Shown: positions 29,533 through 30,101, numbered from the stretch's first letter. The stretch is 64,000 nt of DNA from an uncultured Phycisphaeraceae bacterium (GCA_964495075.1 CAZBUJ010000023.1:1461-65460); one strand, 5' to 3'. Numbers and translations are program-made. The notes: generated from the letters alone by a model not told the origin.

Positions 29533-30101
29533 AATTACAAATTACTAACTACTAATTGCTAATGAGGCGTCTCTTTCGGGCGTTTTCGCCTGTTCGTTGC
29601 GAGTTCCTGATCTCTCCGAGCCTTTTTGGCAATGGTCATCAGTACTCGGACGATTTCGTCCGCTTCGACGAGAATCCGCGTCATCCGTTTCTTCGGAAGC
29701 AGCTCCACGTCTGTTATCAATCGGAGCCAATAGAGCGTTTCGATCGCTTCGCTGCGGGCCACGCTCATTCGCCTGGCGAAATCCGCCTTGCATAACGCCC
29801 CCTGCGCTTCCGCTACGTTGGCTCCGACACTCGTTCCACTCCTGGCCAGTTGCCGCCCGACCACCGATCCCGCAATATCATGGCGGGGCAAAGCACGGGC
29901 GAGCTTCAGCACACGCAGCGCAAACACATACGTGCGTCTTTGAATTTCGCGGGGCTGATACTCCGCGCCACGTTGTCGCTCGGACATGCCGCCGTCATTG
30001 CCTTTCCTGCCCCGAGCGATCCCATCAATCCGTCAAATCCAACCCCTTCATCCGCCCTCGATCCGCCACCAACCACCATCAGTAATTAGTAATTGGCAAT
30101 C
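29533..30101. repeat. heptamer-armed inverted-repeat cassette carrying the four-helix-bundle ORF (IVS-like; possibly mobile)
   Basis: Left arm 29533-29567 is AATTACA AATTACT AACTACT AATTGCT AATGAGG. Right arm 30074-30101 is the reverse complement of GATTGCC AATTACT AATTACT GATGGTG. The arms abut the atpG stop codon and enclose CDS 29559..29987. Confidence 0.85.
29559..29987 (-). CDS. four-helix-bundle protein (23S rRNA intervening-sequence protein / Avd-like family)
   Basis: 142 aa. The segment GRQLARSGTSVGANVAEAQGA..KADFARRMSVARSEAIETLYWLRL matches the TIGR02436-type consensus (QlrRa..Si..NIAEG...f..fl.iA.GS..E..t.l). It is embedded between atpG and atpD. Confidence 0.9.
   Translation of the reverse strand: MSERQRGAEYQPREIQRRTYVFALRVLKLARALPRHDIAGSVVGRQLARSGTSVGANVAEAQGALCKADFARRMSVARSEAIETLYWLRLITDVELLPKKRMTRILVEADEIVRVLMTIAKKARRDQELATNRRKRPKETPH

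Follow-up and report, generated by a model that had tools for sequence, protein, structure and literature searches.

A four-helix-bundle gene enclosed by inverted heptamer arrays in the atpG-atpD spacer of an uncultured Phycisphaeraceae bacterium

Organization of the atpG-atpD insert

The stretch of DNA analysed here, 64,000 nucleotides from an uncultured Phycisphaeraceae bacterium (GCA_964495075.1 CAZBUJ010000023.1:1461-65460; hereafter the window), carries on its minus strand an atp operon in which atpB-E-F-H-A-G is separated from atpD-C by an insert. This cassette of ca 570 nt occupies the entire atpG-atpD spacer. It is composed of one open reading frame (ORF) of the four-helix-bundle (4HB) family, of a leader, and of two arms built from heptamers, inverted with respect to each other (Table 1). 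A previous reading, made from the sequence alone and called here the sequence-only reading, had described a 569-nt armed insert. Its limits, the atpG stop and the atpD start were confirmed in the sequence, and so was the ORF, whose TAG stop codon (29561-29559) lies inside the 3' arm. The arm sequences were also given correctly, with the reservation that the arm called right is the 5' arm in the mRNA sense and contains only two perfect units. The 3' arm ends 21 nt before the atpD ATG. Folding of the minus-strand RNA, a check proposed in the same reading, gave a minimum-energy structure of the whole atpG-atpD insert in which the two arms are paired with each other.

Table 1 Coordinates of the cassette, of its host genes and of the ORF-less hairpins in the window.
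Feature	Coordinates	Strand	Remarks
atpG (F1 gamma)	30102..30983	-	Host gene upstream of cassette; stop TAG 30104-30102
Cassette 5' arm	30074..30101	-	mRNA sense: G ATTGCC AATTACT AATTACT GATGGTG; directly 3' of atpG stop
Leader	29988..30073	-	86 nt, G-rich, 5' arm to ORF start; kept in closest relative L097
Four-helix-bundle ORF	29559..29987	-	142 aa; PF05635/TIGR02436
Cassette 3' arm	29533..29567	-	mRNA sense: CCTCATT AGCAATT AGTAGTT AGTAATT TGTAATT
atpD (F1 beta)	28057..29511	-	Host gene downstream of cassette; ATG 29511-29509
Hairpin D	30991..31095	-	atpA-atpG spacer, ORF-less; 5' arm 31095-31068, loop 31067-31025, 3' arm 31024-30991
Hairpin B	27964..28053	-	atpD-atpC spacer, ORF-less; 5' arm 28053-28021, loop 28020-27997, 3' arm 27996-27964
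Hairpin A	1751..2066	+	5' arm 1751-1785, 3' arm 2046-2066; loop of ~260 nt, structured, z -4.0

A promoter/terminator scan found neither a promoter-like site nor a terminator on the operon strand between 27800 and 31300. Rfam gave no match anywhere in the window at gathering thresholds. There is no rRNA in the window (Rfam), and the cassette is not located within a 16S or 23S rRNA helix. PADLOC gave no defence-system match. Among the 45 ORFs called in the window, none corresponds to a reverse transcriptase, a transposase or an integrase, in agreement with the sequence-only reading. No template/variable repeat pair was seen near the cassette and no target-site duplication is visible, TAGGA alone being common to filled and empty junctions.

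Known types of element were considered and rejected. The arms do not form an intrinsic terminator, since a U-tract is missing and atpD and atpC must be transcribed. An integron attC cassette does not fit either, because arms are present on both sides of the gene and no integrase accompanies them. Finally, a diversity-generating retroelement (DGR) was discarded because no reverse transcriptase is encoded in the window and the genes flanking the cassette are atp genes.

The four-helix-bundle protein

The ORF product scores above the cut-offs of both PF05635 (E 3e-19, 69.6 bits for a cut-off of 33.8) and TIGR02436 (E 5e-23, 81.3 bits for a cut-off of 24). These matches bear out its earlier placement in the four-helix-bundle / 23S rRNA intervening sequence (IVS) protein family. 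The family name derives from ORFs found in 23S rRNA IVSs. A profile built from the ORF protein and 45 relatives matches the structures 2RLD (BT_0352; 6.6e-34) and 2GSC (Xcc0516; 8e-4); this profile gave no sequence-profile match to Avd. The AlphaFold (AF2) model of the monomer contains four helices, with a predicted local distance difference test (pLDDT) score of 92.9. Search with this model using Foldseek identified 2RLD as the nearest structure, together with 2GSC (target template modeling (TM) scores of 0.89 and 0.85, respectively). Avd (4DWL) is a weaker match (E 0.065, target TM 0.81), and Avd within DGR ribonucleoprotein structures (8UB7) was also retrieved. Thus, the term "Avd-like" used in the sequence-only reading holds at the level of the fold and not at that of the sequence profile, the protein being nearer to 2RLD and 2GSC. 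By analogy with Avd and Xcc0516, which are pentameric and bind nucleic acids, the protein may bind nucleic acid.

The motif RxxxSxxxNxxE is present in the protein as R49, S53, N57 and E60. N57 is invariant in the alignment of the family (A1), where R49 and E60 are nearly so. A motif GxxRxxxSxxxNxxE has been reported for the family (PMC3936711). The GC content at third codon positions (GC3) of the ORF is 0.64, compared with 0.89-0.93 for the atp genes around it. The orthologous cassettes of L004, L002 and L010 described below show this difference too: the GC3 of the ORF is 0.71-0.76 there versus about 0.90, despite long co-residence.

The atpG-atpD junction in related genomes

The arrangement atpG-4HB-atpD was found in at least seven further lineages, with proteins 50-75% identical to the window ORF. 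These are L097 (75%), L098 (66%), P0003 (65%), P0008 with L004-L007 (61%), P0014 with L002-L003 (57%), L010 (55%) and L012 (50%). Each orthologous copy has mutually complementary heptamer arms and the unit varies by lineage. The unit AATTACT of the window, where two copies are perfect, is shared with L097, which has four perfect copies. The corresponding units are AATGTCC/GGACATT in L004, GAATACA/TGTATTC in L002 and L010, and GAATRGC/GCYATTC in L098. All these arrays open with GAAT or GATT immediately 3' of the atpG TAG, which points to a single ancestral array. Whole-cassette folds were calculated for L004, L097, L098 and L090, the last being a degraded copy described below. The arms pair in all four, with 24-42 long-range pairs, and the units involved differ (AATTACT, AATGTCC, GAATRGC, GAATTGC). 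The two arms of the cassette have evolved in concert.

Two other states of the junction were observed. In L090 (GCA_052034525.1; AtpG 71% identical), the 360-nt spacer (4886-5245) retains an intact heptamer 5' array, followed by two out-of-frame protein fragments, MRERTFRCA... and EANGIVRVRTAIVRGARR. The 3' arm is weaker and its pairing is still predicted. We read this spacer as a decayed (pseudogenised) cassette. In L091 and L092, which belong to more distant Phycisphaerae (AtpG 60% and 56% identical, respectively), atpG and atpD are separated by an empty junction of 10-11 nt, TAGGAGCAGTCTGATG. Because the junction is empty in these distant genomes and synteny is conserved in the others, we infer a single ancestral insertion. 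This insertion is old in the clade; it occurred once, in an ancestor of a subclade, and the cassette looks vertically inherited since. The sequence-only reading had proposed that the cassette is mobile or once was, and that related atpG-atpD junctions be searched for empty sites. Such sites do exist; recent mobility is not supported, the cassette being syntenic in so many lineages.

Other features of the atp operons of these genomes were noted. In L091 (3107-3817) and L092 (3200-3910), a class I S-adenosylmethionine (SAM) methyltransferase gene, another foreign gene in the atp operon, is found between atpA and atpG. In L002, a (GATAAGA)n array (7227-7300) is located in the atpH-atpA spacer, with only a short complementary stretch downstream; the cassette arms of this genome use GAATACA.

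Hairpins of the same family in the window

The GC content of the window is 0.66 and only 13 patches have a GC content of 0.30 or less, the cassette arms among them. AATTACT occurs 14 times (0.59 expected), and 33 matches to the 14-mer (AATTACT)2 were counted when up to 3 mismatches were allowed (0.14 expected). The arms are therefore as conspicuous in this GC-rich environment as first noticed. They are not peculiar to the insert. Inverted AATTACN arrays form three more hairpins, A, B and D, none of which contains an ORF, so that four hairpins in total are found within 64 kb. Tandem Repeats Finder (TRF) assigned to each of the eight arms a period of 7 and a copy number of 4.4-4.6. When the hairpins were compared with each other using blastn, the arms alone matched. 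The loop-proximal unit AATGAGG...CCTCATT is common to the cassette and to the ORF-less hairpins. The arms in the window thus belong to one hairpin family, of which one member carries a gene. These tandem 7-nt repeats, intergenic and arranged as hairpin-forming inverted arrays, correspond to what defines the hairpins of short tandemly repeated repetitive (STRR) sequences and heptameric repeats.

The predicted folds of hairpins D and B have free energies of -33.5 kcal/mol (z -3.5) and -39.6 kcal/mol (z -5.6), respectively. Neither hairpin is present in the equivalent spacers of L004/L005, L090 and L098, which argues that they were gained later in the lineage of the window, with the resident unit. 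Hairpin A fills the interval between the stop codons of two convergent genes, encoding a radical SAM/SPASM protein (564-1748) and a DAHP-synthase-family protein (2066-2893). Its loop has no Rfam match at E <= 1. A profile search of the window translated in six frames detected no second 4HB gene, and no remnant of one in the loops of A, B and D.

Other AT-rich sequences were noted in the window. An AT-rich palindrome, TTTCAATTCAGATTGAAA, at 4946-4978, is located between uvrC (3250-4869, minus strand) and a MarR-family gene (4990-5535, plus strand) and is possibly an operator. The AT-rich patches at 55858-55897, 59021-59062 and 59355-59392 lie 5' of a GH10-domain gene and around the 5' end of a sigma-70-family gene. 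These three patches (55858-59392) are unrelated to the heptamer family.

Heptamer arrays around relatives of the gene

A metagenome scan with the protein alignment yielded 80 loci encoding proteins 37-59% identical, which represent the closest relatives of one subfamily and not the whole of PF05635. Gene calls in these loci are crude. A contig search with the single window protein also matched two distant Angelobacter loci. For the 71 genes with both flanks usable, an ungapped helix score was calculated between the upstream and downstream flanks, using reversed flanks and swapped loci as controls. A score of at least 16 was obtained for 49/71 loci, compared with 5-6/71 in the controls, and a score of at least 20 for 35 loci, compared with 0-3. 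Other arm-flanked copies, which the sequence-only reading had proposed to look for within the genome, thus exist among these metagenomic relatives. The folding energy of duplexes between 220-nt flanks does not discriminate (-104 kcal/mol versus -85 to -91 kcal/mol in the controls).

The helices correspond to tandem heptamers, usually in arrays of 4-5 units, and the unit varies by locus (GAAGTGA, AAAAGGC, GAATTTA, AATGGAG, AATTCAA and others). Period-7 arrays are 32x denser within 200 nt of the 4HB genes than elsewhere in the same loci. In the 49 clear loci, the sense strand of the 5' arm is rich in purines, with a median fraction of 0.77, a value above 0.6 in 41 loci and a value below 0.4 in none. 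Such a strict orientation of the arms with respect to the gene speaks for a constraint acting on one strand, and thus for one at the level of the transcript. The arms are AT-richer than their own locus in 49/49 cases (GC 0.33 versus 0.56), including those of GC-rich organisms. The position of the arms is also well defined: measured from the end of the upstream gene, the 5' arm starts at -3 nt (median), the 3' arm stops 5.5 nt (median) short of the downstream start, and the loop between them measures 358-542 nt. The neighbouring genes are on the same strand in 44/49 cases upstream and in 41/52 cases downstream, the crude ORF call erring against this result. HsdM is found upstream five times, HsdS downstream twice, and PdxA followed by RsmA twice; further neighbours are AtpG, ThiG, ThiC and ABC transporters. 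A search of 20 of the relatives' loci with Rfam revealed no rRNA, the only matches being IsrR and one tRNA. As a general rule, this gene family thus appears to come wrapped in inverted heptamer arrays, between genes within operons.

Variations on this organization were observed. The 4HB gene of a Nostoc punctiforme plasmid has arms of the type (AGGTCGG)n / (CCGACCT)n, and a Bacteroidota operon encoding a resistance-nodulation-division (RND) pump, likewise from a plasmid, also holds an armed 4HB gene. In some loci (L094-L096), a local hairpin is present on each side instead of one long-range stem. On a plasmid of Candidatus Chlorohelix (Chloroflexota; L095, 2320-2990), the gene is located between direct copies of a ~100-nt unit containing a heptamer hairpin. 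On an Anabaena cylindrica plasmid (L094), the gene, encoded on the opposite strand, separates cas2 from cas1, and each of its sides carries a separate heptamer hairpin.

The unit is not simply a genome-wide property, since two cassettes with different units are found on the same contig in L054 (3193-3498 and 5001-5357) and in L081 (3546-3887 and 4989-5339). Similarity between units correlates weakly with similarity between proteins (rho -0.21), for pairs that are not independent and are confounded by phylogeny. For instance, the proteins of L062 and L081 are 78% identical and share a unit. In addition, a cyanobacterial contig (L013, with IsrR at 843-1020) contains six period-7 arrays of the AAACCCT/AAAATTC type (2115-4960) within 3 kb upstream of a 4HB gene. 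These arrays form several inverted pairs that contain no 4HB-family ORF.

Interpretation of the cassette

We favour, as the rather probable reading, a resident IVS-type cassette in an mRNA operon, in which a TIGR02436/PF05635 gene lies within inverted AU-rich heptamer arrays that would close an RNA stem, probably cleaved by RNase III. Read-through transcription would carry the cassette in the atp polycistron. Pairing of the arms would then produce an AU-rich duplex of ~30 bp and turn the 570-nt insert into a stem-loop, so that the atpG stop and the atpD start would again lie within ~20 nt of each other. Such a duplex is a likely substrate of RNase III, by homology with the 23S IVS of Coxiella. 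Cleavage would free the 4HB mRNA, and the operon transcript would be divided into segments capped by stems. Ribosome stalling at the duplex and an uncoupling of atpD-atpC, both proposed in the sequence-only reading, would be further putative consequences. Arms made of tandem repeats could pair in several registers and tolerate slippage. An IVS-style architecture, already put forward in the sequence-only reading, is supported by the anatomy of the cassette, which resembles that of the Coxiella IVS, by the predicted pairing of the arms here and in four relatives, and by homology with the experimentally tested Coxiella case. The conservation of this architecture despite changed arm sequences, among the orthologues and most relatives in other phyla, also counts in its favour.

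Several observations weigh against the IVS-type reading. For this organism, the pairing of the arms, their cleavage and the translation of the ORF are predictions. About 30% of the relatives have no clear long-range arms. Among the arm mismatches counted on the sense strand, G-U (49) is no more frequent than A-C (50). Base-by-base selection on an RNA helix is thus not demonstrated, and complementarity at the DNA level would fit equally. The low GC3 of the ORF after such long residence points to weak expression or to weak selection on codons. Moreover, it is not obvious what the host would gain from a cut by RNase III between atpG and atpD. In Coxiella itself, the S23p protein is apparently not made and the IVS RNA is labile (PMC4990558).

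Alternatively, the stem could remain uncleaved and act as a translational bridge or insulator. The insert would be looped out, and the ribosome finishing atpG would melt the base of the stem, thereby freeing an AU-rich, unstructured atpD leader. The 10-11 nt between stop and start in empty junctions, the extension of the arms from the upstream stop to a few nt before the downstream start across loci, and the AU-richness of the arms in 49/49 loci, GC-rich organisms included, are in line with this proposal; for STRR hairpins, too, a coupling of translation was put forward (PMC2670836). We consider it possible, and on balance improbable. It is purely inferential, coupling is impossible for hairpin A, located between convergent genes, and hairpins B and D contain no insert to be looped out. 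Moreover, RNase III would normally attack a duplex of at least 30 bp.

Another proposal places the function of the arms at the DNA level. They would be the terminal inverted repeats of a foldback or MITE-like (miniature inverted-repeat transposable element) mobile element, the 4HB protein would be a mobility or maintenance factor, and the ORF-less hairpins would be non-autonomous derivatives. AT-rich inverted repeats readily extrude cruciforms. The four hairpins of the window share units, including AATGAGG/CCTCATT, two of them (B and D) were gained in its lineage, and relatives are found in many unrelated operons (hsdM-hsdS, pdxA-rsmA, RND pumps, cas loci). Similar proteins also occur with similar units in different contexts, as judged from the above correlation and from L062/L081; this relation is confounded by phylogeny, and in L054 and in L081 a single contig holds two cassettes with different units. 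The equal frequency of G-U and A-C mismatches is also compatible with a DNA structure. A mobility role for the IVS ORF product was suggested earlier (Ralph and McClelland, as cited in PMC4990558). However, a target-site duplication cannot be defined, the 45 window ORFs include neither a transposase nor an integrase nor a reverse transcriptase, and the atp copy is found at the same site in lineages with AtpG proteins 66-85% identical. The polarity of the purine-rich 5' arm (0/49 reversed) is not expected of a symmetric DNA structure. We therefore regard a mobile element as unlikely.

It is also conceivable, at still lower probability, that the protein binds to the RNA or the DNA of the repeat arms around its gene. 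Binding would serve autoregulation or the formation of a ribonucleoprotein similar to that of Avd with the DGR RNA, and the 7-nt period would reflect the spacing of subunits in a pentamer. The fold does match that of Xcc0516 and BT_0352, which are pentameric, and, to a lesser degree, that of Avd, also as present in DGR ribonucleoproteins. The usual number of units in the arrays (4-5), the relation between unit and protein similarity and the 32x enrichment of arrays beside the gene would agree with such binding. On the other hand, the units vary widely while the surface motif R49, S53, N57, E60 is nearly invariant, which disfavours a sequence-specific reading of the arms, and in Xanthomonas the ORF-less hairpins far outnumber the 4HB genes (70-75 pairs, PMC4692102). 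Finally, arms without function, arising from slippage of heptamers, the tandem-repeat length favoured in bacteria, and from chance or recombinational inversion in slack intergenic DNA, are very improbable: in many genomes no long simple repeats are as abundant as heptamers, for which a bias of polymerase slippage has been proposed (Mrazek 2007, as cited in PMC4679880 and PMC4692102), and copy number does vary (4 perfect units in L097, 2 in the window), but complementarity is kept across 360-540 nt while the unit sequence turns over, arrays are 32x enriched beside one gene family, and polarity, AT-richness and abutment to the neighbours' codons are uniform.

Broader implications

In a wider, doubtful extension of the IVS-type reading, 4HB (S23p/Avd-like) genes in inverted heptamer arrays would form one widespread class of cassettes residing in host transcripts, of which the rRNA IVSs would be the first-noticed members. 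Heptameric intergenic hairpins, such as the cyanobacterial STRRs, the Xanthomonas GGGAATC pairs and hairpins B and D, would be ORF-less derivatives, and the protein would help to make, copy or maintain the hairpins. The role of the "23S rRNA intervening-sequence proteins" and the build-up of intergenic heptamers may be one and the same puzzle. Genes and repeats travel together in Planctomycetota, Cyanobacteria, Chloroflexota and Bacteroidota, and the host operons are ordinary ones (ATP synthase, type I restriction-modification, pdxA-rsmA, efflux pumps, cas). The IVS-type reading offers a testable model, in which an essential operon tolerates an insert because an RNA stem hides or excises it. 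The rule that inverted heptamer arms run from the upstream stop to the downstream start also makes it simple to look for such cassettes, whatever the genome. The loci described here offer an evolutionary series, from empty site to intact cassette, decayed cassette and ORF-less hairpin.

Comparison with known systems

Repetitive extragenic palindromic (REP) sequences, bacterial interspersed mosaic elements (BIMEs) and MITEs are short palindromes present in multiple copies in operon spacers, which are thought to affect mRNA stability or to be non-autonomous mobile elements. Like them, the window hairpins are palindromic, located in intergenic operon spacers and present in several copies. However, the window arms are tandem heptamer arrays and not a fixed palindrome, one copy carries a conserved protein gene, and no REP-associated tyrosine transposase (RAYT), other transposase or target duplication was seen here. 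The cassette protein shares its four-helix-bundle fold with Avd, whereas DGRs contain a reverse transcriptase and template/variable repeats, none of which was found in this case.

Heptameric repeats have been described in several bacteria. STRR hairpins with 7-bp units lie between hupS and hupL in cyanobacteria, where a role in transcript stability or translational coupling was proposed (PMC2670836). In Xanthomonas, GGGAATC heptamers form inverted pairs (PMC4692102), and TAACTGA heptameric repeats are found in Beggiatoaceae (PMC4679880). All these repeats, like those of the window, are intergenic tandem 7-nt units, often between same-strand genes and near the upstream gene, and some form inverted pairs. 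In contrast, those papers make no link to 4HB genes, and we are dealing here with a planctomycete, with AATTACN units and with one hairpin that encloses a gene. As described above, 4HB genes of Nostoc, Chloroflexota and Bacteroidota likewise have such arms. We found no publication linking inverted heptamer arrays to 4HB genes in general, in a literature search of incomplete coverage that does not prove novelty. 4HB genes were noted inside cas operons (PMC3936711) and in rRNA insertions of candidate phyla radiation (CPR) bacteria (PMC11270868).

The closest parallel is the 23S IVS with an S23p ORF, as found in Coxiella burnetii and Leptospira. The Coxiella IVS has a 28-bp stem of terminal inverted repeats, a GC content lower than that of the genome, and 2-3 tandem GACAGAT heptamers just 5' of the S23p start, in a strain-dependent copy number; RNase III was shown experimentally to cut the stem at the first repeat (PMC4990558). 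The IVS and the atp cassette thus have in common the ORF family, the position of the ORF in the loop of a terminal-repeat stem, purine-rich tandem heptamers of variable copy number 5' of the ORF, an AT content higher than that of the host genome, and transcription within a host RNA, as predicted for the cassette. They differ in that RNase III cleavage was shown for Coxiella only, and in the host RNA, which is an rRNA helix there and the atpG-atpD mRNA operon here. In addition, the arms of the window are longer, with arrays on both sides of the gene, and ORF-less copies are present in the neighbouring spacers.

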